Both the position numbers and the translations under genes were made by a program. Source: a bacterium (GTDB lineage Bacteria > UBA6262 > WVXT01). Taken from it: 15,414 nucleotides of DNA. Location of the stretch: NCBI GenBank assembly GCA_046759165.1, contig JBHIBS010000032.1, forward strand, positions 1 through 15,414, given 5' to 3'. The notes beneath the pieces are model-generated. The model was not told the origin of the DNA and made no database searches. It saw nothing but the letters and a program-made list of their open reading frames with translations. Below, one piece after another: positions 1 through 15,257 of the stretch. How positions within the stretch are numbered: the first letter of the stretch is position 1; the number at the start of each line of letters is the position of its first letter.

Positions 1-1307
1 GCCGAACCAGGTTCATTATCCCCGACTACAATTCTGGAGGCACCCATCGTTCCCACCACAGCCAGAATGAGGAAAATACTTACAACCCCCCATCTGGAAA
101 GGCGGTTTACACTCAAAGAGGATATTTTTCCCAGAATCCTGTTCAGCAAATTGAATCTTTCCTCTCGCTCAACCTCCTTTCTTTTAGGAGGGGAAACAAA
201 AGAAAGGACCGAAGGTATAAAGGCTACAGTAGTGAAGAAGATACTTAACACCCCGGCTCCTGTAGCCAGAGCCATACTTCTAATCATTGCCAGAGGAACT
301 ATAAGAAGAGAAAGAAAGCCCAGTCCATCGGTAAGCAGGGAAGTGCAGGCGGGAACGAAGAGAGACCGAAGTGTTTCCTGAGAGGCTTCTTTGCTTGAAA
401 GATGTCTCAATGCCTCTTCATAATATCTTTTTATGAATTGAACAGAGTGGCTTATCCCTAAAGCCAGTACCAGAAAGGGCGTAAGTATGGTGGTTGGACC
501 AAGCCTATATCCTGTGAGAGTAAGGATTCCTAATCCCCAAACAGTAGCCATGAGACTGGAAGCAAGCGGAAGGAGAACTCCTCTCTTGGACCTGAAAGCA
601 CTGTATAGAATTAAAATCATCACAATTAGTGTTCCCAGAAAAATTTTTCCCATTTTGGGAATGTAAAAATCAAGCCATCCTTCCAATATCGGTCTCCCAC
701 CAATATATATGTGATTATTGGAATCCTTCTCTTCCTCTATAATTTCTCGAACTTGGCCAAAGATTCTTCTCGAGGCTACATCCGATTCGAAATCAGCCTG
801 AATTAGCGTGCTTTTGAAATCTTTCGATACAATGGGTCCGTAGATCATAGGATTCCTGACAATAGCCATCCTCAGTTTTTCCATCTCTTCAGTCGACTTC
901 GGCGGATACCTCATAAGCCTTTCTGCTCCAAATCCCTCCGCGGTCGCTTTCACATTCTTGATTTTCCTTGCTGAAAGGGAAACAACTCTACCAGCGTTTA
1001 TTCCGTCGAGAAGGTACAATTTCTTTGTAATGCTATATACCTTATTGAGAGTCGAATGATTAAATATATCTCCTTCTTTTACCTCAACGGCTATAGAGAT
1101 TTGATTCAATCCACCGAAGATATGGGTCAGTTGTCTCTGAACTGCAAGGTAGGGATGTTTCTGGGGGGCAAAATCACCTAAATTGGTCTGAAAGGTTAAA
1201 TGTCTTAGTTCATACACAAATAAAATAGTCAAAGCCAGGGAAATAAGAATAAATACTACCCTGTGCCGAATGACAAATCTCGCAAACAACGTTGAAAAAT
1301 TGCTCAA
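1..1307 (-). CDS. MMPL family / RND-superfamily efflux transporter permease, N-terminal ~435 aa (runs off left edge)
   Basis: Manually translated at both ends, which share one frame. TTG start at 1307 after GGGAAGGG RBS: MSNFSTLFARFVIRHRVVFILISLALTILFVYELRHLTFQTNLGDFAPQKHPYLAVQRQLTHIFGGLNQISIAVEVKEGDIFN...; TM1 followed by a large periplasmic loop; at the window edge it reads ...MGASRIVVGDNEPGS, the start of the second repeat. Absent from the ORF track, presumably because there is no stop in the window. Confidence 0.88.
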   Translation of the reverse strand, partial: MSNFSTLFARFVIRHRVVFILISLALTILFVYELRHLTFQTNLGDFAPQKHPYLAVQRQLTHIFGGLNQISIAVEVKEGDIFNHSTLNKVYSITKKLYLLDGINAGRVVSLSARKIKNVKATAEGFGAERLMRYPPKSTEEMEKLRMAIVRNPMIYGPIVSKDFKSTLIQADFESDVASRRIFGQVREIIEEEKDSNNHIYIGGRPILEGWLDFYIPKMGKIFLGTLIVMILILYSAFRSKRGVLLPLASSLMATVWGLGILTLTGYRLGPTTILTPFLVLALGISHSVQFIKRYYEEALRHLSSKEASQETLRSLFVPACTSLLTDGLGFLSLLIVPLAMIRSMALATGAGVLSIFFTTVAFIPSVLSFVSPPKRKEVEREERFNLLNRILGKISSLSVNRLSRWGVVSIFLILAVVGTMGASRIVVGDNEPGS

Positions 1308-1327
1308 CCGTTCCCTTCCCACACTTA

Positions 1328-1846
1328 TTAAGCAAATTGTTTTATCAATCTCTCTGTGAATCTGATTTCGGATTTCATAATCTCCAGAGTATGCTCCGTA
1401 ATGGCAATCATATGGTATAGGGCTTTCTCTCTCTGAAGAGTCTTTTCTCTATTCTCCGCCCAGGCTTTGATTTTTCTCAACCCATTCAATCTGTTTTCAA
1501 GTCGCCTTTTAACTATTTTAGGACTCACATATTGGAGAAAGTAGAGTGAGAGGTCTATATTTAGGTAGGGTCTCTGGAGAATAAGAAAGTTCTTATTTAA
1601 CAATTTAGTAAACTCTTCTTTCCCTTTTTGAGTAACCCTGTAGACATACTTCTCAGGACGCCTCCCCGCCCTTCCCACTTTCTTCGAGACCATACCTTTC
1701 TCTTCTAACCTCTTCAAAGGATAGTAGACCGATTTGACACTTATACCCGTAAATTGGCTTACCACATTATCGATCTCTTTTTTTATTTCATAACCATGTT
1801 TCGGACCCCCTTGCAATAAACCCAAAAACATCAAATCTTCCATCAT
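1328..1846 (-). CDS. PadR family transcriptional regulator
   Basis: wHTH signature LGLLQGGPKHGYEIKK...SVYYPLKRLEEKGMV...GRRPEKYVYRVTQKGKEEF plus a C-terminal helical dimerisation region; GGAGGA RBS at 1847-1852; the second ATG (1843) may be the real start. Confidence 0.93.
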   Translation of the reverse strand: MMEDLMFLGLLQGGPKHGYEIKKEIDNVVSQFTGISVKSVYYPLKRLEEKGMVSKKVGRAGRRPEKYVYRVTQKGKEEFTKLLNKNFLILQRPYLNIDLSLYFLQYVSPKIVKRRLENRLNGLRKIKAWAENREKTLQREKALYHMIAITEHTLEIMKSEIRFTERLIKQFA

Positions 1847-2098: not shown

Positions 2099-5000
2099 TT
2101 AGAACTTTATGGTGAGTGTTGTGTTGACGTCAACGGCAAAATAGTTATTCTGGGGTAAAGCTCGATTAACAAAAAAGGTCATCCCACTTCCCACAGTTAA
2201 CATCAAATTTGTGCCCACGTTAAAATCACTCGACAGTAAGGTAGAATATGTATCAGTGTTGTCCTTCTCCCAATTGAGCTCGCTTCTCTTAATTTCAGCA
2301 CTTAAACGACCCTTGACTTTCATTTCACCTGCTGTTCTGACTCGCTTTCCGATTATTGGAATCTTCCACATTTCGGGCAAACTTAAACGTGCTTCCACAT
2401 CAATACTGGATGTGTGGATCCGACTTTCTTTCGTCTTTTCCCCACCGGTCTCTCCCTCCTCTTTCTTATAACCATACTTGAAATTAAATCTCCAATCCTT
2501 CCACCAGGTGAAAGTAATTTGAGCAGAATACGCTCTACTAAATTCTTCTAAGCTAATCTGCCAGGAAGGGGCACTTTTTACTCTTTTCCGGTAACCATTG
2601 TAGGTTAACCAAAAATAGTAATCTTTGAATAGTTTAAATCTCAAATCCTCACTGAAGTTTCCCGTTCTGCCCAACGAGACATCTTTGGTATCCTCCTTGG
2701 TCAGGATGTACTTTGTCATCATTTCTACTTCCTGCATTGCCAAGCCAAGTAGAGGGAATTTTTCGAGCTCCTTCATTCTTATATCCAGATAGGGCCAGAT
2801 GCGTTTCTGGCTATCGAGACGAGTTGGACCCCGATGAGTCTGTGTGCGTGTATAGTCTATGTCGGTGGTTATAGTCTTGAAAGGATATAGATATCCTTTC
2901 AAATCGAGAAATTCCAAGGGCTTCCAATTACTTTCCATCCTGAAGGTATCGAGAATGGAAAAAGATTTCAATTCATCCTCAATTCCTTTCAGTCTTTTAT
3001 ACCCCATACCCTTACCCCTTAGCCACAACTTCCCATAGATAGGATAGTCCTCCCTTATCTTCTCATAGGTATCACCATCGTTCAATTCATAAGAGGAAGT
3101 GATATTCAAGGAAGCTACAGGTTTAAATTTGGGAAAGAGTGATTTGGGAACAATAGGTAGTCTGAGTTTTGCTGAGCTTGACCTAGTAAAGTTCTTCTCT
3201 TCAGGAATTGAGGTACTGGTAACGATTATGAAATTTTCAGTATTGGTTATTTTGTAATCTATGGAAGGTTTGAGCCATTCGAAAAATTGGAGAGTTGAAT
3301 TAAATCCCGCTGTCTGTGTGCCCGACCTGGGACGTCCAATCTTTCCATCCGCATGCGCTCTTTCCCTCACTTTTCTCAAGGAATAGGATGGTTCAATCGA
3401 TAACTTAGATAGTGGCCTGAAGGTTGCTCTACCCGACCAATCATTTGTGAATTCCCAGAAATTTTTCTCCGTAGGAGCAGTGCTTGTGAATTTTGTAAAT
3501 TTATCAATCTTTTTATACGAACCGCCTATATCGTGCGGAAGAAGAAAGAAGCGAATAGGGAGTTCATACTGGTATAGAGTAGCTGAATATGTATCCGAAT
3601 CTTCCCTCCTCCCCTCAGGTTGACTACGCTCAACAATGCTTTTAGTATACCTTGTCCCCAGCCTGGGCAATTTTGGCAACCTGAGTTCCGTACTGGCACT
3701 CCCTTGCTGGCTTACCACACGACCTTCATCCTGGACGCTCAAATCCGCAACCCTCACCACCGAAGGAGTAACTGTGGTGGTCCTGCTCCAGTTCATTGAG
3801 ACTGGCAGGTAACTAAGCCTATTAAAATTCGTATAAGCTGAGATTACCTCTCTATCCTGATTCTTACTGGGAACAGTAATCGTCTCAAAGTTCCTATCCA
3901 TATACCAGTACTTTCCGCCAAAAGTGAACCAGCCGGGAAGTTCACAATCTAATCCCAACCTACCTGCCCAACCCTCCTTTTTCCTCGCACCGGTCAGATG
4001 AATCTCATTAACCCAGATTTCCCCATCAGAAATATTACTTCCTGTGCCATTTACAATCATTAGTCTTATCTCTGCAATGTTGGTGAGAACGGGATTCCCC
4101 ACCCTCCTTATGGTTCCATCTGAAGTTTCCATTGTGTCTGCTCCGTACTTTCCGTCAATATCTTCTAAGTTGATGGTCAAAAGCTTCCAGCCCTGCCAGT
4201 TTACCGTTCTTTCAAACTGATAATAATCGCTGGGAGTTCCTAATCTCATTGTGAAGGTAGGATTCTTTGTCGGATAATCGGGATTCTTAATGAAGAACCT
4301 GATTCTCTTATATTTTGAGTAGTCCTCAGCCCTAGTAAATGTCCATTTCGTGTATCCTGTTGCACCATTAATTAGTGTGTACTTCAGCGAAAGTGCCTGT
4401 TCCACTTCCCGTTCCTCGACAGCTTTCTCACCATAAAGGTCTTCATAATCTTCGTTATCGAGTAAGCCGCGACCATAATCAATATCCTCCTCAGTATTCA
4501 CAGCACCGACCGAAAAATAATCATTGGGACCTGCACTCTGGACAACTCCCCTCTCCCATTTATTCCCCACCACGCCAATTGAAGTAATCTTTATACTTCC
4601 TGAAATACCTGTTCCCTTCAATGTTATCCTTATGTGCTTTATAGCCGTCCAGTTTGAGGCAGTGGCTGTAGTGATACCAAGGTCCCAACTCACTTTCCTC
4701 CAGCCAGACCAGTTTACAGTGGTAGATGTCGAATAAGAAAAGCCTGCCGCTTCTGGACCTACGCGGTCCCCATCCAAATCCTCAGTGTCAATTTTTCCAT
4801 TCTTATAGCCGATCTTTCCATCCCTAAGGTAAATTTCCTCATCATCACCGATCCATCCAGAAAAATCCCAACCGACGTCCTCGCCGACATTTAGAGTCCC
4901 ATCGCCATTAACATCCTCTGTGTCCAGCACCGTATCCCCATCAGCATCCTCCGCAATGCTTCCCAATGTAATCTCCAGAATTTCTCCCTTCCCATCGCCA

Positions 5001-7132
5001 TAAACATATAGTTCTAAACTCTCCTTCTGTGAGTAGTCGACTCCTCGAGTGGAAATGGGATAGACAATAGATGCTGTAGCATTTCCAATCAAATTGTAAT
5101 TAATCTTCAGGGCTTCCTGTTCTTCATCTTCACCCACATCGGCATTTGGCTTGAAATCCTTAATCCTAACATCCTCATTATCCCAGCTGATAGCTCCTTC
5201 TAAAGTGGGAACTGCTCCCGGGTTACTGGCTATCTGCCAAAGGTCTTTATCGGTCGGCATCCCATCAATTAACTTTACTCCTTCCATGCTATCAATTATT
5301 GCCTTTCCCCGGGTATTGGGATTATTGAGACTTCTGCCTAATTCACCAGAAATCTTTGTCTTGAAAGGGAAAAATGGCTGGGGCTCAAAAGAGAATTCTG
5401 AATTTGCATCCAGAATGAGTTTACTCCCCGGAGTCGCCCTCACGCCGGGAACGGTTGCCGGTTTAGCTGCACCGCTATAAAGGATTGTGGAACCTAAAAA
5501 GAACCTGTCAGTGGGCGCCCATTCTCCCCTTGCGCCCAATAGAGTCTCCTGAAAGAGCCCTGCAAAGGGCATATATTCATAGTTAATCTTAATTTCTGTC
5601 TCTTCATCGATCTCTTCTTCTCGAAAGAATGTAATAAAGCCAGAGTCGTAGTCAATGAAATAGTCTTCATCCTTTTTGAGTAAGCGCCCATTCAATGTAA
5701 TCTTCTCACTTCCCTCCACGATGTTCGGACGCAGGAAATATGTCTTCTGCCGATACTTATACTCCACATACATGATGTAATGGTGCTGGGGATTTGTCTT
5801 GTCGTAAATGTCAGAATATGGCGGGTCGAAAGGCGTGCTGTCCTTAAATTTCAATATCCCCTCATCATAATCCATCTCAATCAGATCGTAGACATTCCCA
5901 AAAGTAGTTACTTCGTTACGGTTCAAATCTAAAATCTTCACAATAAAGTCCCTGCCCTCAACTCCCTGGATGATTTTCTTTCTGCCCAAGTTGTAATAAT
6001 TCATCATTTCCTGGTTCAAGAGTTCGTCTTCGTCTTTCAGTATCTTGGGCAAGTTAGCATTCCCGGTCCGCAGCCAAGTACCATCAGACTTCTGATAATC
6101 TACAGCGATAACATAATTTTCATAAATAGTCTTCCTGAAAGTAATAATCCCTTTAATATAGTCTATTGTATAATCCTGTCCCGGAACTTGAAGATTAAAG
6201 TATCCGTAATATGTAGCGCTGGGGAGTAGGGGCTCGGTACTTCTTACCACCATCCAGTCGCCATTCTGATTATTTGTCCCATCCCTGTCATCAACATAGA
6301 CCAGTTCACTTCCGCTCTGAATGTTGTTATCCCATAACTCATAGTATTTTCGCCGTCGGTACGAGGTATCGTTAATATCCCTCTTCTCAAATGTGCTCTT
6401 TCCTTTGAATTTCTTCTCTTCAGGTATTCCCTTGGTCTGGGAGCCAATAGCCATGAATTTGAATTTCTTATACTGCGCATTGACTTTCCCTCCAAATACG
6501 CTCTTCTTATACGCAACGAATTCAGTTGCAGGAAGTTCCAAGGTAATATCCCCGAATGCTGCTTCCTGAACAATTTCACCAGGGTCCCCTTTATAAACCA
6601 CCGTAATATCCCTCTTATCCTCCACAGTATCATCATAATCCACATTAACTGTAATCTTTCTACCCACCTGTCCCTTAATCTTCACCTGGAGCTCCTGGTT
6701 CATATCAAACCCCTCAGTCACTCCAGGAGGAGTGCCAGTAGTTGTCCTCTTCTCCTCATCCTTATAGAATACAGCACCATACTTCATCGAAATCATTTTC
6801 CTTCCGGATATGCTCAACCTCGACTCAAACGGAAGAATTACACCAATCCCTTTGGGAGGAGGGGGGACGGGTTTCGCCTCTTCTGGTTTTACTTCTTCCA
6901 CCTTCTCAACTTCGCCCGGAGCTAAAAGCTCTTCTTCAACTATGAATATTCCCTTCTCCTTCTCTCTCCTCATTCTATTCCATTCTTCTTGACTATAGGA
7001 GATAGATTCCTTCTCCTTTACAAGGGTATCAAAATCTTCGATTGCACCACCCCTAACGTCCATAGAACTCACTGAAGCAAGCCCAATGGATGCAATCGAA
7101 GCTAATAGAAAAATCTTTCTCGAAAGTAACAT
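2099..7132 (-). CDS. SprA/Sov-like large outer-membrane protein (type IX secretion translocon family), 1677 aa
   Basis: Signal peptide; SprA-type N-terminal motifs FDMNQELQVKIKGQVGRKITVNVDYDD, YKGDPGEIVQEAAFGDITLELPATEF...VFGGKV and IVEGSEKITLNGRLLKKDEDYFIDYDSGFITF; GSIAED...LDTED and GEIWVNEI motifs; amphipathic beta-strand-rich C-terminal third ending in Phe (TLTIKF); RBS AAAGGAAGA. Confidence 0.8.
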   Translation of the reverse strand: MLLSRKIFLLASIASIGLASVSSMDVRGGAIEDFDTLVKEKESISYSQEEWNRMRREKEKGIFIVEEELLAPGEVEKVEEVKPEEAKPVPPPPKGIGVILPFESRLSISGRKMISMKYGAVFYKDEEKRTTTGTPPGVTEGFDMNQELQVKIKGQVGRKITVNVDYDDTVEDKRDITVVYKGDPGEIVQEAAFGDITLELPATEFVAYKKSVFGGKVNAQYKKFKFMAIGSQTKGIPEEKKFKGKSTFEKRDINDTSYRRRKYYELWDNNIQSGSELVYVDDRDGTNNQNGDWMVVRSTEPLLPSATYYGYFNLQVPGQDYTIDYIKGIITFRKTIYENYVIAVDYQKSDGTWLRTGNANLPKILKDEDELLNQEMMNYYNLGRKKIIQGVEGRDFIVKILDLNRNEVTTFGNVYDLIEMDYDEGILKFKDSTPFDPPYSDIYDKTNPQHHYIMYVEYKYRQKTYFLRPNIVEGSEKITLNGRLLKKDEDYFIDYDSGFITFFREEEIDEETEIKINYEYMPFAGLFQETLLGARGEWAPTDRFFLGSTILYSGAAKPATVPGVRATPGSKLILDANSEFSFEPQPFFPFKTKISGELGRSLNNPNTRGKAIIDSMEGVKLIDGMPTDKDLWQIASNPGAVPTLEGAISWDNEDVRIKDFKPNADVGEDEEQEALKINYNLIGNATASIVYPISTRGVDYSQKESLELYVYGDGKGEILEITLGSIAEDADGDTVLDTEDVNGDGTLNVGEDVGWDFSGWIGDDEEIYLRDGKIGYKNGKIDTEDLDGDRVGPEAAGFSYSTSTTVNWSGWRKVSWDLGITTATASNWTAIKHIRITLKGTGISGSIKITSIGVVGNKWERGVVQSAGPNDYFSVGAVNTEEDIDYGRGLLDNEDYEDLYGEKAVEEREVEQALSLKYTLINGATGYTKWTFTRAEDYSKYKRIRFFIKNPDYPTKNPTFTMRLGTPSDYYQFERTVNWQGWKLLTINLEDIDGKYGADTMETSDGTIRRVGNPVLTNIAEIRLMIVNGTGSNISDGEIWVNEIHLTGARKKEGWAGRLGLDCELPGWFTFGGKYWYMDRNFETITVPSKNQDREVISAYTNFNRLSYLPVSMNWSRTTTVTPSVVRVADLSVQDEGRVVSQQGSASTELRLPKLPRLGTRYTKSIVERSQPEGRREDSDTYSATLYQYELPIRFFLLPHDIGGSYKKIDKFTKFTSTAPTEKNFWEFTNDWSGRATFRPLSKLSIEPSYSLRKVRERAHADGKIGRPRSGTQTAGFNSTLQFFEWLKPSIDYKITNTENFIIVTSTSIPEEKNFTRSSSAKLRLPIVPKSLFPKFKPVASLNITSSYELNDGDTYEKIREDYPIYGKLWLRGKGMGYKRLKGIEDELKSFSILDTFRMESNWKPLEFLDLKGYLYPFKTITTDIDYTRTQTHRGPTRLDSQKRIWPYLDIRMKELEKFPLLGLAMQEVEMMTKYILTKEDTKDVSLGRTGNFSEDLRFKLFKDYYFWLTYNGYRKRVKSAPSWQISLEEFSRAYSAQITFTWWKDWRFNFKYGYKKEEGETGGEKTKESRIHTSSIDVEARLSLPEMWKIPIIGKRVRTAGEMKVKGRLSAEIKRSELNWEKDNTDTYSTLLSSDFNVGTNLMLTVGSGMTFFVNRALPQNNYFAVDVNTTLTIKF

Positions 7133-7173
7133 CTCTTCCTTTTAAATATTCATTATATGGGCAGAGCAACCAC

Positions 7174-7198
7174 CTAGGGGCGACCCTTGCGGTCGCCC
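7174..7198 (+). repeat. REP-like palindrome
   Basis: CTAG-GGGCGACC-CTTGC-GGTCGCCC, an 8-bp perfect stem; GCGGTCGCCCAA recurs at 11850-11861. Confidence 0.65.
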
Positions 7199-7217
7199 AA
7201 ACTCTGCGTCAATGTAG

Positions 7218-7270
7218 GGAGTGCAGGGGCTTGTCCCCGTAAAAATTCCGCCCATAAAGGGCTACACTAC
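7218..7270 (+). repeat. 53-bp REP/BIME-like element, family A copy 1
   Basis: GGAGTGCAGGGGCTTGTCCCCGTAAAAATTCCGCCCATAAAGGGCTACACTAC; near-identical to 13474-13526 and to the reverse complement of 9976-10028. Confidence 0.9.
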
Positions 7271-7303
7271 TCGCAACTTTTGGAGAAGAACCCCATCCTT
7301 ATT

Positions 7304-7328
7304 GTAGGGGTTCGATTCATCGAACCCG
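7304..7328 (+). repeat. GTAG-REP hairpin, family B copy 1
   Basis: GTAG-GGGTTCGAT-TC-ATCGAACCC-G; identical to 13443-13467, one mismatch to 15392-15414. Confidence 0.9.
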
Positions 7329-7401
7329 CAGGTCTGATAAACGCACCTTCCGCCACGAGAATTTTAGCATAATTCTAACCAATTTAATCCCACTTTACAA
7401 T

Positions 7402-7467
7402 AAAAAAACCGCTCCCCAGTCTTCTCCAAAAAAGTAACGCCAGCGTCCAAATCACTGGTTTGCGGTT
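7402..7467 (-). terminator. Candidate terminator / expression platform of the riboswitch
   Basis: Minus strand AACCGC-aaa-CCAGU...ACUGG-gga-GCGGUU followed by a U-run; the internal loop is long, so this is atypical. Confidence 0.5.
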
Positions 7468-7483
7468 AAATAGTTCTCCGCGC

Positions 7484-7571
7484 GTCTTCCTTCGGTAACC
7501 CAGCCCTCCGCAGTGCGGAGCTGTAGCTTTGCGTCCTCCGATTTCTCGGAGTTTGCCTTTTCGCAGAAGAC
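7484..7571 (-). ncRNA. Cyclic di-GMP-I (GEMM-I) riboswitch aptamer in the 5' leader of the SprA-like gene
   Basis: Minus strand GUCUUCU-GCGAAAA-GGCAAAC-UCCGA-GAAA-UCGGA-GGACGCAAAGC-UACAG-CUCCGCACUGCGGAG-GGCUGGGUUACCGAA-GGAAGAC: P1 GUCUUCU/GGAAGAC, GNRA-capped P2, and the conserved GGCAAAC, GACGCAAAGC and UUACCG motifs. Confidence 0.9.
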
Positions 7572-7606
7572 AAGTTGACCTTATAAATTATGTAATTTCC
7601 AAAATG

Positions 7607-7635
7607 ATTATATCACAGATTTCCCTTATTGTCAA
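7607..7635 (-). promoter_or_regulatory. Consensus sigma70 promoter driving the riboswitch/SprA-like transcript
   Basis: Minus strand TTGACA (7635-7630), 17-bp spacer, TATAAT (7612-7607) with extended TGn; predicted start ~7600, about 30 nt before riboswitch P1. Confidence 0.85.
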
Positions 7636-7665
7636 TCGCTTTTGGAGGGCTACAGAATTTTATAA

Positions 7666-7694
7666 TTGCCATAATCGATGAAATTATGTATAAT
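7666..7694 (+). promoter_or_regulatory. sigma70 promoter for lptFG
   Basis: TTGCCA (7666-7671), 17-bp spacer, TATAAT (7689-7694). Confidence 0.65.
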
Positions 7695-7746
7695 CATTTT
7701 GAAACATAAAGGCTTACTCAGAATTATTTTTTGGCTTGCCTTTAAA

Positions 7747-8829
7747 ATGAAAGTCCTACATCGCTATATTATTACTGAATTCATACCTCCCACCCTTCTC
7801 GCTCTTTTCGTATTTAGCTTTATCTTAACTATGGAAAGGATATTCGACTCAATAAACCTCCTGATTAGCAAGGGTGTGAGCTTTTCTACAGTCATTCAGC
7901 TTCTCGGATATGCATTACCTCCCATTCTGGTTTACACCATTCCCTTGGCAATCCTGGCGGGCACCCTTATCTGTTTTGGGAGACTCTCTTCCGACAATGA
8001 GATAACTGCAATCCAGGCCTCGGGTCTAAGCCTCTACACTATCTTTCTTCCTGTCATTATTGTGAGTCTCATTGTCAGTATATCTCTTGTCTCCTTCAAC
8101 CAGCAGATAGCACCCAGGGCGTATAATCAATTTCGTAGATTATATTACCAGATAATCCACAAGAATCCCGTACTTAAACTTGAAGAGCGCACTTTCCTTG
8201 ACATAAGGGATTACAGGCTTTATGTAGAAAAGATTAAGCATAAAAAGGGGAAACTTTCGGGCATAATTATGTATGAAATGAAAAAGGAAGGCTTTCCCAC
8301 ACTAATCACAGCCCAGCGGGGAAACATGATAAGCAATGAGCAACAAGTGGTTTTCAAGTTATTTGATGGAACCATTCAACAGAAGGATGAAGATGACCCG
8401 AACAAGTACAGCATAACCTATTTTAAGAATTACGATATTTCACTCGACCTTACCCAAACCCCACCCCCGAAGGCTAAACGAATCAGACAGATGGAAAAAT
8501 CTGAACTTTTACAGGAGATAAAAAGACTGAAGCGAGATAATGTCCCTACTTATTCATTAGAAATAGAATACCATCAGCGCAGGTCACTCGCTTTCGCTGC
8601 ATTTGTTTTCTGCTTAATCGGAATTCCCCTGGGAATAAGAGCACGCCAGAAGGGAAAATCGATTGGATTTGGCTTGAGCTTGCTCCTGTTTCTGTTATAC
8701 TGGTTTCTCCTGATGGAAGGGATTAGGCTGGGAGAGAGAGGAATCACTCCTCCACAGCTGGGTGTGTGGATACCAAATTTGGCCATAGGAATAACTGGGG
8801 CCTGGATGATTTACAGAACCACAAAGTGA
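7747..8829 (+). CDS. lptF: LPS export ABC transporter permease LptF
   Basis: MKVLHRYIITEFIPP start; GRLSSDNEITAIQASGLS motif; 3 TM + periplasmic domain + 3 TM with IGIPLG. Start moved to 7747 because ATG 7678 lies within the promoter. Confidence 0.88.
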   Translation: MKVLHRYIITEFIPPTLLALFVFSFILTMERIFDSINLLISKGVSFSTVIQLLGYALPPILVYTIPLAILAGTLICFGRLSSDNEITAIQASGLSLYTIFLPVIIVSLIVSISLVSFNQQIAPRAYNQFRRLYYQIIHKNPVLKLEERTFLDIRDYRLYVEKIKHKKGKLSGIIMYEMKKEGFPTLITAQRGNMISNEQQVVFKLFDGTIQQKDEDDPNKYSITYFKNYDISLDLTQTPPPKAKRIRQMEKSELLQEIKRLKRDNVPTYSLEIEYHQRRSLAFAAFVFCLIGIPLGIRARQKGKSIGFGLSLLLFLLYWFLLMEGIRLGERGITPPQLGVWIPNLAIGITGAWMIYRTTK

Positions 8830-8844
8830 TTGAATGCAACATTT

Positions 8845-8865
8845 GTAGTCATGGTTTCAACCGTG
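8845..8865 (+). repeat. Degenerate GTAG-REP hairpin between lptF and lptG
   Basis: GTAGT-CATGGTT-TC-AACCGTG. Confidence 0.45.
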
Positions 8866-8884
8866 CAAGAACAGGAATGTTCAA

Positions 8885-9970
8885 ATGCGTATTTTAACTC
8901 GTTACATATTAAATGAATTCTTGAAACCATTTCTCTTGGGGATAGTTGCTTTTGCCTCCCTACTCATAATTTCTGAATTATTCGTCCAGCTCGACAGATG
9001 GATCGACCTCAAGACTCCCCTTCTGGTCTGTGCAGAATATCTCCTCTGGCGAACACCTGAATGGCTGGTCCAGATATCTCCCGTGGCAGTTCTACTAGCC
9101 ACTCTTTTCTCACTGGGGGGGTTTGCTCGCCATAACGAACTTACAGCTATGAAAGCCTCTGGATTAAGCTTATACAGAATTCTACTTCCTCTATTACTTC
9201 TTTGCTTGTTCCTCGTTCTCGGGTCTCTCCTATTCAGTGAGGTGGTTGTGCCTTATGCCAATCAAAGGGTAGATTACATCTACAATGTGAAAGTGAAGCA
9301 TCGAAAAATCAGGGATTATCAAAAACAGGATAACCTTGTGATAGCAGGGGAGGAAGGACGGATGTACACCATCAAGTACCTTGATGGAGAAAAGAAATTA
9401 ATGGAAGAAGTATCGGTTGACCAATTTAACAAAGACTTTGCTATGGTAAATCAAATCTACGCCAAAAAAGCCATATGGAAAGGTGACTACTGGATATTTT
9501 ACGACGGAGTTTTCCGCCAGTTTGACCATAACGAAACAGGGACAATCAGAGAAGAGAAATTTAAGGAAAGGGTCTTCTATTTGCCAGAACGCTTAGACCA
9601 TTTTTGCCGTAAACAAAAGAAGCCTAATGAAATGAACTATTTTGAGTTGAGAGATTATATCGCAAAGCTGACCAAAAATGGGATTCCAGCAATTCGAGAA
9701 AAAGTGGCACTCTATTCAAAGGTATCCTTTCCCTTTTCCTCTCTCATAATTATGCTCGTTGGCATTCCCTTTGCCCTGCAGACTTCAAAAAGCGGGAAAG
9801 TGATGGGATTTGCTTTGAGCATATTTATCTGTTTCCTCTACTGGGGAATGTTCTCTGTAGGTAAAGCAATTGGAGAGAACCGCCTCCTGCCGCCTGTTCC
9901 AGCCGCCTGGTTTGCCAATATTATCTTCGGAATTTTAGGACTGGCCTTAATCTCAAAAATCCACAAATAA
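8885..9970 (+). CDS. lptG: LPS export ABC transporter permease LptG
   Basis: MRILTRYILNEF; ARHNELTAMKASGLS; KPNEMNYFELRDYI; KVSFPF...GIPFA; AAWFANIIF; tandem with lptF. Confidence 0.88.
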   Translation: MRILTRYILNEFLKPFLLGIVAFASLLIISELFVQLDRWIDLKTPLLVCAEYLLWRTPEWLVQISPVAVLLATLFSLGGFARHNELTAMKASGLSLYRILLPLLLLCLFLVLGSLLFSEVVVPYANQRVDYIYNVKVKHRKIRDYQKQDNLVIAGEEGRMYTIKYLDGEKKLMEEVSVDQFNKDFAMVNQIYAKKAIWKGDYWIFYDGVFRQFDHNETGTIREEKFKERVFYLPERLDHFCRKQKKPNEMNYFELRDYIAKLTKNGIPAIREKVALYSKVSFPFSSLIIMLVGIPFALQTSKSGKVMGFALSIFICFLYWGMFSVGKAIGENRLLPPVPAAWFANIIFGILGLALISKIHK

Positions 9971-9975
9971 TAAAA

Positions 9976-10028
9976 GTAGTGTAGCCCTTTATGGGCGTAG
10001 TTTTTACGGGGACAAGCCCCTACACTAC
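9976..10028 (-). repeat. 53-bp REP/BIME-like element, family A copy 2; possible bidirectional terminator
   Basis: Perfect terminal inverted repeat GTAGTGTAG...CTACACTAC; fills almost the whole gap between the convergent lptG and S8 protease stops. Confidence 0.9.
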
Positions 10029-11678
10029 CTATTTTATAACTGCAAGCTTCCCTGCTTTCCTATTGCCATCAGCATTAACCACATATATATAGATCCCCGA
10101 AGCTACCCTCTCCCCATAATCATTTCTCCCATCCCAATTGTATTTGTAAACATATCCATCATCATACCACTTATCCATATAGATACTGCTCCCTTCTACA
10201 TCTAAAACCATTTCTCCAGCTAAATTATAAATACCAATACTTTTATCCACTACAGCTCGCTTAGTGGTAAAATAGATAGTAGTATAATTTTCCTCTCTTG
10301 GTTTAAATGGATTGGGATAGTTCATTGTCATATGCACGATATTTCCTGCCACATAATAAGCAGTCAAGGCACTATAAGCATCTATCCTTCCCCATCCCGT
10401 CTCCTGGTCCCAACCAGAACTACCTATATCATCCGCGGTCTTCTCAATTATTCGCCTTACATCAGAAGGCGCCAATCCTCCTAAATGGGAGAGGATTAAA
10501 GCTGCCAGTCCAGAAACAAATGGTGTAGCCATGGATGTACCCCAACTAGGACCATAATTACTGTCCACCAACCCTGTACCCATTCGGACCGTACTCAAAA
10601 TATTAACTCCAGGTGCCACCACGTCGACCTGCGGTCCATAATTGCTAGAACCCCACCTCTCATCGCTCGGATTAGATGCACCAACCGCAATCACATTATC
10701 GTATGCTGCTGGGTAAGCAACGTAGGGTTTATTGTCGTTCCCAGAGGCAGCTACTAAAAGGCATCCTTTGTTATAGGCGTCGTCTATGGCTTGCCTTTCC
10801 AACTCATTAGGAGTGGGGGGATACCCAGTAGTGCCAAAACTCATGCTTATAATATGCGCACCCTTGGTAACAGCATAATCTATACCTTCCAATTCATCGT
10901 CCAATGTTCCCTCTCCATTGGCGTCGAGCACTTTCACCGCCATAATTTTAGATTTCCATGATACCCCGGCAATTCCTATACCGTTATTCGTAACCGCTGC
11001 TGCGATGCCAGCACAATGCGTGCCGTGACTTTGATTATGGTCATCATCAGGATCGTCATCCTCATTAACAAAATTCCATCCTTTATCATCATCTATGTAA
11101 CTATTGCCATCATCATCCTGACCATTACCAGGTATTTCTCCCTTGTTTATCCAAATATTGTCTTCCAGGTCCTCGTGGTCATAATCAACGCCAGTATCTA
11201 AAATAGCAATGACAATACTCCCTTTACCGGTCTCCGTGTCCCATGCCTCAGGTGCGTGAATTTGCGTAATTCCCCATTGCTGGCCGAAGTGGGGATCAGC
11301 GGTAAAAGCTTTTCTTATATAGTTTGGCACAGCAAATTCTACATTAGGGTCTTCTCTGTATTTTTTCAACATCTCATTAATAGTTTTGGAAGGTGGAACC
11401 TTCAGGAGATAAAGATTCTTAATTCTGAGTTTTTTCTTTATCTCAACACCGAACTTCTTATTAATTTTATCGATAATCTTTTTTTCAACCTCTCGCTTAA
11501 ATTTTACCAGGAATTCATCAGCTACTACCGATACTTTTCGATTAGTCTTAGGGTGGATAATAAATGCTTTTTTTATCTCTCTTGCCCAGAGGTGATTAGA
11601 GAAGAAAAAAATATTGAATATCAGGAAGGTAAATAATATTTTCTTTTTCATAAGCATGTTCTTGTTCGGTACGCGCAC
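10029..11678 (-). CDS. Secreted S8 (subtilisin-like) serine protease with C-terminal T9SS type A / FlgD-Ig-like domain
   Basis: Signal peptide MKKKILF...LWA (true start probably 11651 or 11657); propeptide (DEFLVKFK...DPNVEFAVPNY); triad ILDTGVD, SHGTHCAG, GTSMATP; C-terminus NYPNPF...IYNLAGEMV...WDGRNDYGERVASGIYIYVV...GKLAVIK. Confidence 0.93.
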   Translation of the reverse strand: MRVPNKNMLMKKKILFTFLIFNIFFFSNHLWAREIKKAFIIHPKTNRKVSVVADEFLVKFKREVEKKIIDKINKKFGVEIKKKLRIKNLYLLKVPPSKTINEMLKKYREDPNVEFAVPNYIRKAFTADPHFGQQWGITQIHAPEAWDTETGKGSIVIAILDTGVDYDHEDLEDNIWINKGEIPGNGQDDDGNSYIDDDKGWNFVNEDDDPDDDHNQSHGTHCAGIAAAVTNNGIGIAGVSWKSKIMAVKVLDANGEGTLDDELEGIDYAVTKGAHIISMSFGTTGYPPTPNELERQAIDDAYNKGCLLVAASGNDNKPYVAYPAAYDNVIAVGASNPSDERWGSSNYGPQVDVVAPGVNILSTVRMGTGLVDSNYGPSWGTSMATPFVSGLAALILSHLGGLAPSDVRRIIEKTADDIGSSGWDQETGWGRIDAYSALTAYYVAGNIVHMTMNYPNPFKPREENYTTIYFTTKRAVVDKSIGIYNLAGEMVLDVEGSSIYMDKWYDDGYVYKYNWDGRNDYGERVASGIYIYVVNADGNRKAGKLAVIK

Positions 11679-11814
11679 CCTTCTGGTTGCAAATTTAAAC
11701 GTCCCGATAAATCAGAGCGACTACCATCTTACTTTTGGTAGCCGCAAATTCTGGACTCCTTGCGAAAGCAAGGTTTTGGTTTTTCAACCTCCCTTTCGGG
11801 AGGACTTCAAGCAT

Positions 11815-11861
11815 GTAGGGGTACGTATAATTTACCCCGCCAAAGCAGGGCGGTCGCCCAA
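11815..11861 (+). repeat. Degenerate REP cluster downstream of the TraF/PorV-like gene
   Basis: GTAG-GGGTA...TACCCC (11815-11838) and GGGCGGTCGCCCAA (11848-11861), related to 7174-7200. Confidence 0.5.
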
Positions 11862-11865
11862 GGAA

Positions 11866-13416
11866 CTAGAAATTAAATGAGAGCCCAAGTGAGCCGATTA
11901 AAGCGGTGGGAAACTTCTGGCCCCCGGCAATACTTGTCCTTTCAGTGCTTACCGCACCAGCAAAATCTAACTGGAAATGAAAGAGATTTAAACCGAGTCC
12001 AGCAGTGAACATACTTCCGTAACTTTCAGATAAATTATCCATAAATCCGCCACGCAGCGCAAGGTTAAGCCAGGGCCTGTTGAGAAGATTCACCTCGGCT
12101 CCCAGGCTCAACATTCTGGAATGGTAGCCCGGGAGAACTGTCTTATTATTTGTCACGTCTAAATCTGCAGAAAGGGTTATGAAATTTAAAGGCCAGTAGG
12201 CTGCCCCAATCCTCACCTGTGGCTCTATAACGTACTTGTCCAAACCTGCTTCTTTCGCTTCTTTCGGCTGACTGAAAGAAGGATAGGTCAAGTTTCTTAC
12301 AACCATTCCAAATCTTGCCCCCCAACTCTCCCTCAAATCATAAAGCGCACCTATATCCGCTCCAATTGTGGTTGAAGTTTTACTATAATCTCTATAATCT
12401 TTATACAGACTCTCGGTGAGGTCTTCTTCCGAAAATACATCAAATTGAGCGAACCCCACAATTCCATACATAAACTTGATATTGCCTCCCACATAAAGGT
12501 TCTTTAACCAGGGTAGTTCCCGTGCATAGGTAACCGGAGCTTCAAAAAGCATTATCCCATTAAACCTGATATTTGTCTCATTACCACTGAACCCGCTACC
12601 TGTAATTGTCCCAAGCACGGCATTTCCGGCCACTTCGGCAATCGTACTGGCCACCGTGGCAATCTCGTCGTCAGAAAGACCCATTAGTGCTCCGGCAATT
12701 ACCAGTTCTTCGGCAATTTTTTGATTATCCCATGACGGGTCCGTGGGAGCTACACCCAAATCATCCAAAGAATTTCCTATACTATTAGCAATTGACTGTT
12801 GTGATGAAGTGAGGTCCCAAAGGTTCGTTCCGCCAGTTCCATCACCTGGGGTTCCATCCAAGTCAACATCTACACACAAAGCATCGAGTGCAGCTGTATC
12901 GACCCCTCCCAGTCCAATATGGACGAGGTCGAGGTCGGGGTCTGTTCCTAACTCAGTTATGTTAATCACTCCCATCCCTAAGTTGCGATAACGAATGTTG
13001 AACCCAGCGTTTATATCCAGAATTAACCCCAGCCCAGATTTGTTTAAATCATCCATTTCATTAATTGCCGAAGTGAATTCTTGTATCAGCTCGGAATCAA
13101 ATGGGGCACCTCCCTTCTGCATTTCCTGAATCTCACCTACTGTATCGGCTATGTCTCCCAGGTCATCCACTTCTTTAATTAGGCCTTCCGTGGTTTCCAT
13201 GCTAACTCCCAAAGGAATCTGGATGTCCAGCCCTTTCTGTAAAGCAAAGCCTGCTGGATTCCAGTACTGGGCAATTGAGTCCTCAGCAACTGCCACAAAT
13301 GCTCCTCCCATTCCCAATGGTCTTGTTCCCAAAATTTTAAATGAACTTGCCAGGCCAATCTGTCCTAAAAACGCCACCATTGAGACTGCTACTGCCAAAC
13401 TAATCGCTTTTCTCAT
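11866..13416 (-). CDS. TraF_2 / PorV-like (FadL-superfamily) outer-membrane beta-barrel protein
   Basis: Signal peptide; N-terminal plug motif GTRPLGMGGAFVAVAEDSIAQYWNPAG; barrel-strand C-terminal half (GADIGALY, FGMVVRNL, PQVRIGAAY, LSADLDV, LALRGG) ending in SFNF; RBS GAGGGGG. Confidence 0.8.
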   Translation of the reverse strand: MRKAISLAVAVSMVAFLGQIGLASSFKILGTRPLGMGGAFVAVAEDSIAQYWNPAGFALQKGLDIQIPLGVSMETTEGLIKEVDDLGDIADTVGEIQEMQKGGAPFDSELIQEFTSAINEMDDLNKSGLGLILDINAGFNIRYRNLGMGVINITELGTDPDLDLVHIGLGGVDTAALDALCVDVDLDGTPGDGTGGTNLWDLTSSQQSIANSIGNSLDDLGVAPTDPSWDNQKIAEELVIAGALMGLSDDEIATVASTIAEVAGNAVLGTITGSGFSGNETNIRFNGIMLFEAPVTYARELPWLKNLYVGGNIKFMYGIVGFAQFDVFSEEDLTESLYKDYRDYSKTSTTIGADIGALYDLRESWGARFGMVVRNLTYPSFSQPKEAKEAGLDKYVIEPQVRIGAAYWPLNFITLSADLDVTNNKTVLPGYHSRMLSLGAEVNLLNRPWLNLALRGGFMDNLSESYGSMFTAGLGLNLFHFQLDFAGAVSTERTSIAGGQKFPTALIGSLGLSFNF

Positions 13417-13442
13417 CCCGCTTCCCCCTCTTGTATTTTCTT

Positions 13443-13467
13443 GTAGGGGTTCGATTCATCGAACCCG
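13443..13467 (+). repeat. GTAG-REP hairpin, family B copy 2
   Basis: GTAGGGGTTCGATTCATCGAACCCG, identical to 7304-7328. Confidence 0.9.
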
Positions 13468-13473
13468 TCAAAG

Positions 13474-13526
13474 GTAGTGTGGGGGCTTGTCCCCGTAAAA
13501 ATTACGCCCATAAAGGGCTACACTAC
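13474..13526 (+). repeat. 53-bp REP/BIME-like element, family A copy 3
   Basis: GTAGTGTGGGGGCTTGTCCCCGTAAAAATTACGCCCATAAAGGGCTACACTAC. Confidence 0.9.

Positions 13527-13593: not shown

Positions 13594-15257
<1,664 letters not shown>

Follow-up and report, generated by a model that had tools for sequence, protein, structure and literature searches.

A candidate type-IX-like secretion locus with an SprA-superfamily barrel and a PorV-like barrel in a bacterial phylum outside Bacteroidota

An SprA-like gene and its leader

The 15,414-nucleotide stretch of DNA analysed here (hereafter, the window) is the whole of one contig (JBHIBS010000032.1; C32) of a 1.885-Mb, 165-contig genome assembly from the candidate bacterial phylum UBA6262, and it carries three genes that resemble outer-membrane parts of a type IX secretion system (T9SS). 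All three lie on the minus strand and encode a giant outer-membrane barrel of the SprA/Sov superfamily (1677 aa; positions 2099-7132), an S8 serine protease with a C-terminal domain (CTD) of the sorting type (549 aa; 10029-11678), and a FadL-fold barrel that resembles PorV (516 aa; 11866-13416). On the plus strand between them are lptF (7678-8829), which is divergent from the SprA-like gene, and lptG (8885-9970), both encoding permeases of lipopolysaccharide (LPS) export. A preliminary description, made from the letters of the window alone, had singled out the same three open reading frames (ORFs) as a divergent and possibly minimal T9SS-like pathway in a lineage other than Bacteroidota; they sit exactly where it had placed them, with lptF and lptG between, and the barrel and protease genes are indeed adjacent and co-oriented, at a spacing of 188 nt. 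The T9SS is assigned by reviews and structural papers to Bacteroidota or to the FCB superphylum (PMC10994853, PMC12398890, PMC9170169).

The 1677-residue protein has a signal peptide and ends in phenylalanine, and the same holds for every one of 72 complete homologues that a filter retained from the fetched loci, a terminal F being itself among its requirements. A single-sequence phmmer search with this protein against the PDB gave no useful match, and a family profile was required: a profile of 26 proteins of the same short type (A1) retrieved SprA of Flavobacterium johnsoniae (6h3i_A, E 4.4e-33), and when this profile was aligned by hhalign with one of 16 Bacteroidota-type SprA proteins (A3), homology was assigned a probability of 100% (E 3.8e-77) over 1254 columns. 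Residues 483-1677, modelled with AlphaFold2 from a 50-row alignment, consist almost entirely of long beta strands (mean predicted local distance difference test score, pLDDT, 83.6), and in a Foldseek comparison of this partial model with the PDB, four SprA chains (8gl8_A, 8gl6_A, 6h3i_A and 6h3j_A) occupied ranks 1-4 (E 1e-44 to 2e-34; template-modelling (TM) score 0.55-0.60 normalised to the query), with the match at rank 5 reaching only E 5e-7. The protein is a member of the SprA/Sov superfamily that stands outside the curated equivalog, and its earlier identification as SprA-like holds for sequence and predicted fold alike.

The short type of SprA occurs in all 12 species genomes of the phylum in our collection, and a word-based search recovered 118 relatives of the window's protein. 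Those at 78-85% identity are labelled 'bacterium' or 'Clostridia bacterium', and some homologues at 82-83% identity carry a precomputed PF14349 match; those at 29-41% identity are, where named, mostly Elusimicrobiota; and at about 21-28% most belong to PF14349, with several bearing the name SprA. The nearest homologues outside the phylum come from metagenome-assembled genomes (MAGs) of Elusimicrobiota, and the tier at 30-41% consists mostly of Elusimicrobiota and Endomicrobiales MAGs. One relative, whose short-type gene lies on contig C23, has a further SprA-type match above the NCBIfam cut-off (G004:C147:959-2764; 247 bits, in a 924-aa open frame), which may be a second, canonical-type copy or may reflect a contaminating contig.

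The 5' leader of the SprA-like gene contains a 77-nt candidate riboswitch aptamer for cyclic di-guanosine monophosphate (c-di-GMP) of the c-di-GMP-I class, GGC variant (7490-7566, minus strand; RF03167, matched over its whole length, 1-80, at 58.9 bits and E 5.7e-12), and the orthologous leaders of loci L022 and L024 score 64.5 and 63.2 bits, respectively. The riboswitch/SprA-like transcript has a sigma-70-type promoter (7607-7635, minus strand) of the form TTGACA-17-TATAAT, with 12 of 12 matches and an extended TG. About 30 nt 3' of the aptamer, a consensus scan found a terminator-like hairpin and T-run (7440-7458, minus strand; a six-pair stem with four GC pairs, then CGTTACTTTT), which is likely to be the expression platform of the riboswitch. 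Between this hairpin and the start codon of the SprA-like gene are three repeated hairpins resembling repetitive extragenic palindromes (7174-7334, minus strand), whose 20-mers recur 13-30, 7-11 and 3-4 times across the genome at up to two mismatches; the leaders of L022 and L024 have no such hairpins and are about 200 nt shorter. A full-length match to the aptamer model, with a terminator-like hairpin after it and an envelope or surface gene downstream, is the arrangement of c-di-GMP-I (GEMM-I) riboswitches in general (RF01051/RF03167), which differ from the present case in that the gene that would be regulated here is that of an SprA-type translocon.

The riboswitch lies directly 5' of the SprA-like gene in eight of the nine genomes of the same family (G000, which is the window's own genome, G004, G006, G007, G008, G009, G010 and G011), and in the ninth the contig begins at the SprA-like gene; the phylum's three more distant genomes and locus L032 showed none at this position. 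Riboswitches of the c-di-GMP-I class are numerous in the family, with 9-20 matches per genome (G000 and G004-G011; 1.3-2.0 Mb), and the three more distant genomes have 1-3 matches each. Some matches are in tandem (e.g., G000:C60:4324-4409 and 4518-4630). Members of the same riboswitch family also precede genes of the kinds described below: one is directly 5' of a gene pair for a CBM96-CTD cargo protein and a PorV-family barrel (G000:C6:49469-49542), a weak match (29 bits) is 5' of a giant CTD gene on contig C14 of the same genome, and others are 5' of operons that join a barrel gene to a FliG-fusion gene (G010:C14, G011:C4, G008:C82, G004:C8 and G007:C55).

The PorV-like barrel, CTD proteins and the lptFG neighbourhood

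The 516-residue barrel exceeds the cut-off of the TraF_2 model by a wide margin (85.5 bits against 25). As with the SprA-like protein, a single-sequence phmmer search against the PDB gave no useful match and a family profile was required; with a 75-row profile (A2), the best match was PorV (6h3i_F, E 3.7e-10) and the next was TodX (E 0.14). The structural model (pLDDT 88.1; predicted TM score 0.81) comprises an N-terminal hatch and a 14-strand barrel, two loops of which carry about 150 aa of helical insert; the topology of FadL would make these the first two extracellular loops. By this model the barrel has a FadL-superfamily fold, and what would assign it to PorV is its sequence profile together with its gene context. 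The preliminary description had read the LGMGGAFVA...YWNPAG stretch as a PorV-type plug, and the stretch is present (barrel residues 34-56); but an NPA-containing hatch motif such as YWNPAG is common to the whole FadL superfamily, so that the motif alone is no mark of PorV.

Barrels of this kind are plentiful. In the window's own genome of 1.9 Mb, PorV_fam gives 13 matches, which fall in about 11 genes; four of them, all at other loci, exceed the cut-off (229, 211, 172 and 113 bits), and five Elusimicrobiota genomes have 12-27 matches apiece. At E 0.001 or better, the subfamily to which the window's barrel belongs comprises 1956 representative proteins, mostly of about 500 aa, of which 151 reach 1e-30 or better, and a hidden Markov model (HMM) of the subfamily gives 585 bits on the window's barrel and at most 72 bits on the others of the genome, which therefore has a single high-scoring member. 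Another FadL-fold barrel of the genome (G000:C79:3394-4602; L100) is matched better by the BamG model (NF053685, 89.6 bits against a cut-off of 250) than by PorV_fam (58.3 bits).

The protease consists of a signal peptide, an N-terminal prodomain (Fervidolysin_NPro-like, 48 bits) and a Peptidase_S8 domain (PF00082, 229 bits) with the catalytic Asp, His and Ser motifs present (DTG, HGTH and GTSMATP), which together occupy positions 10332-11678 of the minus strand, followed by a CTD of 100 residues (10032-10331, minus strand) that is near T9SS type A. Orthologues at 59% identity or higher occur in six of the nine same-family genomes. The four motifs that the preliminary description had quoted from the protease (YPNPF, WDGRN, GIYIY and KLAVIK) are all found within its last 100 residues. 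Among curated models, those of PorU and PorZ match it through their own CTD parts (30.2 and 26.1 bits, respectively), and the CTD also reaches 19.4 bits with FlgD_ig and 18.9 bits with CHU_C, both under the respective cut-offs.

An HMM built here from this CTD identified eight ORFs in the genome and, after iteration over the related loci, a further 13 in those loci, and all 21 matches are at the extreme C-terminus, ending at most five residues from the stop codon. The aligned CTDs (A4) share a conserved PNP, WDG, GxY and a terminal K-x4-K/R, and the passengers to which they are attached are mutually unrelated (S8 proteases, M6 proteases in other lineages, CBM96/disaggregatase-like, FG-GAP and fn3 proteins, and a 1582-aa beta-propeller protein). 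Seven of the eight CTD ORFs in the genome lie within 552 nt of a gene for a PorV-family barrel (on contigs C6, C51, C79, C14, C32 and, twice, C7), and the eighth ends 103 nt from the end of its contig; in the related loci, an adjacent barrel was found for 10 of the 13. The linkage of barrel and CTD protein that had been noticed at a single site is, by these counts, conserved. In one of the C7 pairs, the CTD passes the type B cut-off (TIGR04131, 36.7 against 35) beside a barrel that passes the Pfam PorP_SprF model (25.9 against 22.3), and three of the cargo-paired barrels in the genome bear C-terminal TPR arms. A complex prediction for barrel residues 24-516 (A2) with the protease CTD (A4) scored 0.00 twice in runs without controls, and speaks neither for nor against binding.

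A layout of one carrier per cargo is also known for SprB-SprF, in which type B CTD cargo is served by PorP/SprF-like carriers (Liu et al. 2025, PMC12635249), and the C7 pair just mentioned is of this type. The window's pair is unlike SprB-SprF in being nearer to type A and PorV; several barrels of the genome further differ in their C-terminal TPR arms, and there is no GldK with which the carriers could form disulfide bonds.

One of the paired genes on contig C14 belongs to an operon-like series (G000:C14:12249-22922; L101) that encodes the 1582-aa CTD protein, a 684-aa fusion of a PorV-family barrel with TPR, a 673-aa protein with beta-propeller and OmpA_C domains, and a Cache-HAMP-GAF-GGDEF cyclase. 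Beta-propeller and OmpA_C are also the kinds of domain that PorE has.

The remaining genes of the locus, lptF and lptG, are clear members of their families (PF03739, 310 and 298 bits; for LptF, TIGR04407 gives 238.9 bits with a cut-off of 230, and for LptG, TIGR04408 gives 241.8 with a cut-off of 240). Of the related loci, 55 have 2.6 kb or more of sequence 5' of the SprA-like gene; in 41 of them divergent lptF/lptG genes directly adjoin that gene on this side, and in 37 of these both genes are present. The full gene order of the window (AhcY, barrel, S8 protease, lptG, lptF, SprA-like, PadR, MMPL) recurs in L022, and L023 agrees up to the end of its contig; the barrel, S8 and SprA-like genes are on one contig in G006, G008, G009 and G010. 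In loci of the Endomicrobiales type, the S8 protease beside lptG is replaced by an M6 (InhA-like) metalloprotease with the same CTD, preceded in four of the five loci examined by a TraF_2-type barrel gene. The listed ATG of lptF (7678) falls inside a promoter-like site (7666-7694, plus strand; 11 of 12 matches), and the Pfam match begins at residue 29; the true start of lptF is probably further downstream.

A candidate secretion pathway and its missing components

The preliminary description had found no porKLMN gene within the window, and none was detected genome-wide either: the models for GldK, GldL, GldM and GldN have no match in this genome. Across the phylum, the FGE-sulfatase model (the fold of GldK/PorK) matched none of the 12 genomes and was positive in three control genomes; GldN, for which there was no positive control, was likewise found in none of the 12, and GldL in none over its cut-off, with a single weak match of 17 bits in a relative. 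The GldM_1st model gave six weak matches (15.5-24.8 bits), all of them in relatives, while the window's genome had no match; stop codons interrupt five of the six, including one that attains the cut-off only if its parts are joined across the stop. In five Elusimicrobiota genomes, one of them titled as a chromosome, neither GldM nor GldL was found over cut-off, with one GldM match of 14.6 bits. The PorU model found CTD parts only, there being no C25-type PorU catalytic domain in the window's genome or in any of the 12 genomes of the phylum, and neither PorZ nor machinery for attachment to anionic LPS (A-LPS) was identified in the genome. The lineage is, as had been surmised, no member of Bacteroidota with a canonical T9SS; an accompanying hint that cargo might be anchored to LPS finds neither PorU nor PorZ in its support.

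We consider it fairly probable that the window encodes the core, at the outer membrane, of a type-IX-like pathway for secretion and surface display outside Bacteroidota, with a compact SprA-type pore, a dedicated PorV-like barrel and control by a c-di-GMP riboswitch, and without GldKLMN or PorU. The 1677-residue protein would be a compacted SprA-type translocon. The S8 protease, because it carries a signal peptide, would cross the inner membrane by Sec; its CTD would be recognised at the translocon, through whose pore the protein would pass, and the protease would exit with the PorV-like barrel, whose gene lies just upstream, or remain held by it, each cargo having its own carrier as in PorU-PorV, PorZ-PorQ and SprB-SprF of Bacteroidota. 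Transcription of the translocon gene would be gated by the c-di-GMP-I riboswitch (i.e., promoter, aptamer and terminator), so that, under a presumed direction of control, assembly of the pathway would track the cellular level of c-di-GMP. Neither the canonical GldKLMN/PorKLMN motor nor the PorU sortase would form part of it.

Several results weigh against this interpretation and limit our confidence in it. The NCBIfam model for SprA (TIGR04189) matches the 1677-residue protein in four stretches (E 1.7e-48) at 164.8 bits, below its cut-off of 200; a Pfam scan of the protein returned no family at E 0.01 or better, SprA_N (PF14349) included; and hhalign left the final 330 or so columns of the SprA-like profile unaligned to SprA. 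The window's barrel is matched by PorV_fam (NF033709) in two stretches at 61.6 bits, below the cut-off of 90, and Foldseek places TbuX, TodX and FadL at the top, ahead of PorV, for its model. The CTD scores 20.9 bits with Por_Secre_tail (TIGR04183), for which the cut-off is 23, and the aptamer falls 0.1 bit short of the gathering score of 59. Searches of the phylum's three more distant genomes did not recover the S8-barrel pair, and among the 31 loci with lptFG plus at least 2 kb beyond it, a CTD ORF converges on lptG in eight and an A2-type barrel is found within 3.6 kb in nine. A look-up of sequencing runs for positions 4000-13500 listed DNA metagenomes as sources of this stretch, and no RNA run. 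Finally, the genome is only 92% complete, and the models for GldL, GldM and GldN matched none of 14 control genomes, so that negatives obtained with them, having no positive control, are limited.

The closest point of reference is the SprA-PorV translocon of F. johnsoniae (PDB 6H3I, 6H3J, 8GL6 and 8GL8; Lauber et al. 2024, PMC10994853). Shared with it are a homologous giant barrel (over at least 1254 columns, and with the same fold in the 1195 residues modelled), a FadL-fold partner barrel for which PorV is the best relative of solved structure by sequence, and cargo with a C-terminal tag of the beta-sandwich type. The two differ in that SprA of F. johnsoniae has about 2400 aa and the window's protein, which scores below the NCBIfam equivalog cut-off, is shorter by about 700 residues; in addition, there is here no detected GldKLMN, the translocon gene is preceded by a candidate c-di-GMP riboswitch, the lineage lies outside Bacteroidota, and about 11 PorV-family barrels are encoded in 1.9 Mb, mostly one per cargo gene.

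An SprA homologue, many PorV-family barrels and CTD cargo are thus found together, with none of the canonical motor, ring and sortase, both in this small candidate phylum and across Elusimicrobiota, and a re-wired form of type IX export seems to exist outside the textbook range. If the pathway works, it bears on what constituted the ancient core of the T9SS (for which the translocon, the carrier barrel and the CTD are the candidates), on how removal of the carrier could be energised without GldLM, and on how secretion capacity could be tied directly to c-di-GMP by an RNA switch on the translocon gene. A compact translocon and a layout of one carrier per cargo would also suit structural work, and the conserved lptFG neighbourhood makes a link between the pore and LPS export testable. 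The riboswitch on a translocon gene, the linkage to lptFG and the swap of protease class are new here. In the limited body of literature that was searched, we found no description of a riboswitch on an SprA gene, of Elusimicrobiota homologues of SprA or PorV, or of a linkage between FliG-MotAB and PorV-like barrels.

The last of these associations suggests where the energy might come from. FliG_C is encoded in 9 of the 12 genomes of the phylum, and FlhA, for which four control genomes were positive, in none of them. In all five loci that were fetched, a PorV-family barrel ORF is directly 5' of the FliG-fusion ORF, with MotA- and MotB-like ORFs 3' of it; a giant CTD cargo gene is 5' of the barrel in three of these loci, and the other two end at contig boundaries. 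No FliG was found in the window's own genome, in which contig C16 breaks inside the orthologous operon, with MotA (104 bits) and MotB kept. It is conceivable, and we propose it only tentatively, that the SprA-like translocon, the pairs of cargo and PorV-like barrel, and these flagellum-free FliG-fusion/MotAB operons form a single c-di-GMP-riboswitch regulon, i.e., a type-IX-like machine for surface secretion and display powered by a stator and rotor of the flagellar type instead of GldLM-GldKN, in which the protease-barrel pair would replace the PorU-PorV attachment complex. The linkage of FliG-MotAB to barrels is context and no proof of coupling. Of the idea of a divergent, possibly minimal T9SS-like pathway outside Bacteroidota, then, the divergence and the lineage are supported; 'minimal' may be wrong: in relatives, FliG-MotAB operons are linked to PorV-like barrels, and c-di-GMP riboswitches accompany the whole set.

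Other readings of the locus and its flanking genes

The protease and its barrel might be more than a cargo protein with its carrier. The position and the architecture of the protease are kept while its class is swapped, and this raises the prospect that the two form a core processing complex, functionally analogous to PorU-PorV, in which the surface-held protease would trim or release the CTDs of other cargo. In distant lineages, too, lptG and the SprA-like gene have beside them a CTD-bearing protease with an upstream TraF_2/PorV-like barrel (S8 here; M6 in L032, L035, L042, L048 and L090), the CTD scores higher with PorU and PorZ than with the generic type A model, the genome has no C25-type PorU, and the long barrel subfamily has its one high-scoring member in the genome here. 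The PorU-PorV and PorZ-PorQ complexes of Porphyromonas gingivalis (PMC12365241) resemble the window's pair in that a CTD surface protein, here a protease, is joined to a dedicated barrel of the PorV/PorQ family, and in that the window's CTD matches the CTD parts of PorU and PorZ; they are unlike it in that PorU is a C25 cysteine peptidase, instead of an S8 serine protease or, in the Endomicrobiales-type loci, an M6 metalloprotease, and in that no PorZ and no A-LPS attachment machinery were identified here. Against this reading, the pair was found neither in the three more distant genomes of the phylum nor in most Elusimicrobiota loci (only 8 of 31 having a CTD ORF beside lptG), and L090 has the M6 protease without an adjacent barrel. 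Moreover, secreted proteases are common and ordinary T9SS cargo in Bacteroidota. We regard a PorU-PorV analogue as unlikely.

Somewhat less likely again is that the barrel imports hydrophobic compounds in the manner of FadL, that the CTD is an Ig-like (FlgD-type) surface or adhesion module, and that the protease leaves the cell by another route, the adjacency of the two genes being meaningless. In favour of this are the top Foldseek matches of the barrel (TbuX, TodX and FadL, with FadL hatch mutants N33A, P34A and delta-NPA also among the best structural neighbours), the NPA hatch as a feature of the FadL superfamily, a score above the TraF_2 but not the PorV_fam cut-off, and the weak match of the CTD to FlgD_ig. 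In the same comparison, BamG and PorV reach TM scores of 0.45-0.53 normalised to the target (0.51-0.53 for the PorV chains 8gl6_F and 6h3i_F). The FadL, TodX and TbuX channels share with the window's barrel the 14 strands and the N-terminal hatch with its NPA motif, but none is matched by sequence at E 0.01 or better, with TodX coming nearest; the helical loop insert of the window's barrel is a further difference, and genes for barrels of its type adjoin CTD cargo genes, not catabolic genes. If adjacency were meaningless, we would not expect the observed pairing of CTD ORFs with barrels (7 of 8 and 10 of 13), which is far above chance for about 11 barrel genes in 1.9 Mb. That PorV is the best relative of solved structure for the barrel profile, that 21 of 21 CTD matches are at the extreme C-terminus, and that all 12 genomes of the phylum encode an SprA homologue also argue for a carrier barrel and against an importer.

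It is improbable that the SprA-like barrel and LptFG serve the biogenesis of the outer membrane or its LPS (e.g., as an exporter of a lipid-linked polymer) and that no protein is translocated. The head-to-head arrangement with lptF-lptG, kept in most of the loci at only about 30% identity in the SprA-like protein, could be so explained, and the Pfam model of the LptD barrel (PF04453) has no match over cut-off in any of the 12 genomes. This model is, however, silent in a Bacteroides control genome as well, and is therefore insensitive; and a 706-aa ORF with an N-terminal LptD_N domain elsewhere in the genome is a probable divergent LptD, with frames of similar size in most relatives, so that the SprA-like pore is unlikely to replace LptD, an idea raised by the missing PF04453 matches and set aside once this ORF was found. 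The SprA-like protein is, furthermore, homologous to and folded like a known protein translocon, and the riboswitch class is common to its gene and to CTD cargo genes. A canonical T9SS whose motor and sortase genes had merely been missed is very improbable: the 165 contigs, the incomplete genome and the uncontrolled GldL, GldM and GldN searches would allow it, but the same absence in 12 genomes of the phylum and five of Elusimicrobiota, the FGE-sulfatase model that is positive in three controls and in 0 of 12, and a PorU model that found CTD parts only led us to reject it.

At one edge of the window, 3' of the SprA-like gene, are genes for a PadR regulator (1328-1846, minus strand) and a fragment of an MMPL/HAE3 transporter (3-1322, minus strand), and the same pair is 3' of the SprA-like gene, at 84-92% identity, in L019, L021, L022 and L024; the PadR gene may be in one transcript with the SprA-like gene. 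At the other edge are genes for adenosylhomocysteinase (AhcY; 13594-14862, minus strand) and an MntA-type nucleotidyltransferase antitoxin (14859-15257, minus strand; NF047752, 80 bits against a cut-off of 60), the final 4 nt of the latter overlapping the start of ahcY. No HepT-type partner is found in the window, which ends 157 nt beyond the MntA-type gene. An AhcY at 63-69% identity to that of the window is also encoded near the lptFG/SprA-like locus in Elusimicrobiota (L032, L040, L042, L048, L061 and L090), and in L090 the gene for S-adenosylmethionine synthetase lies near the locus as well.

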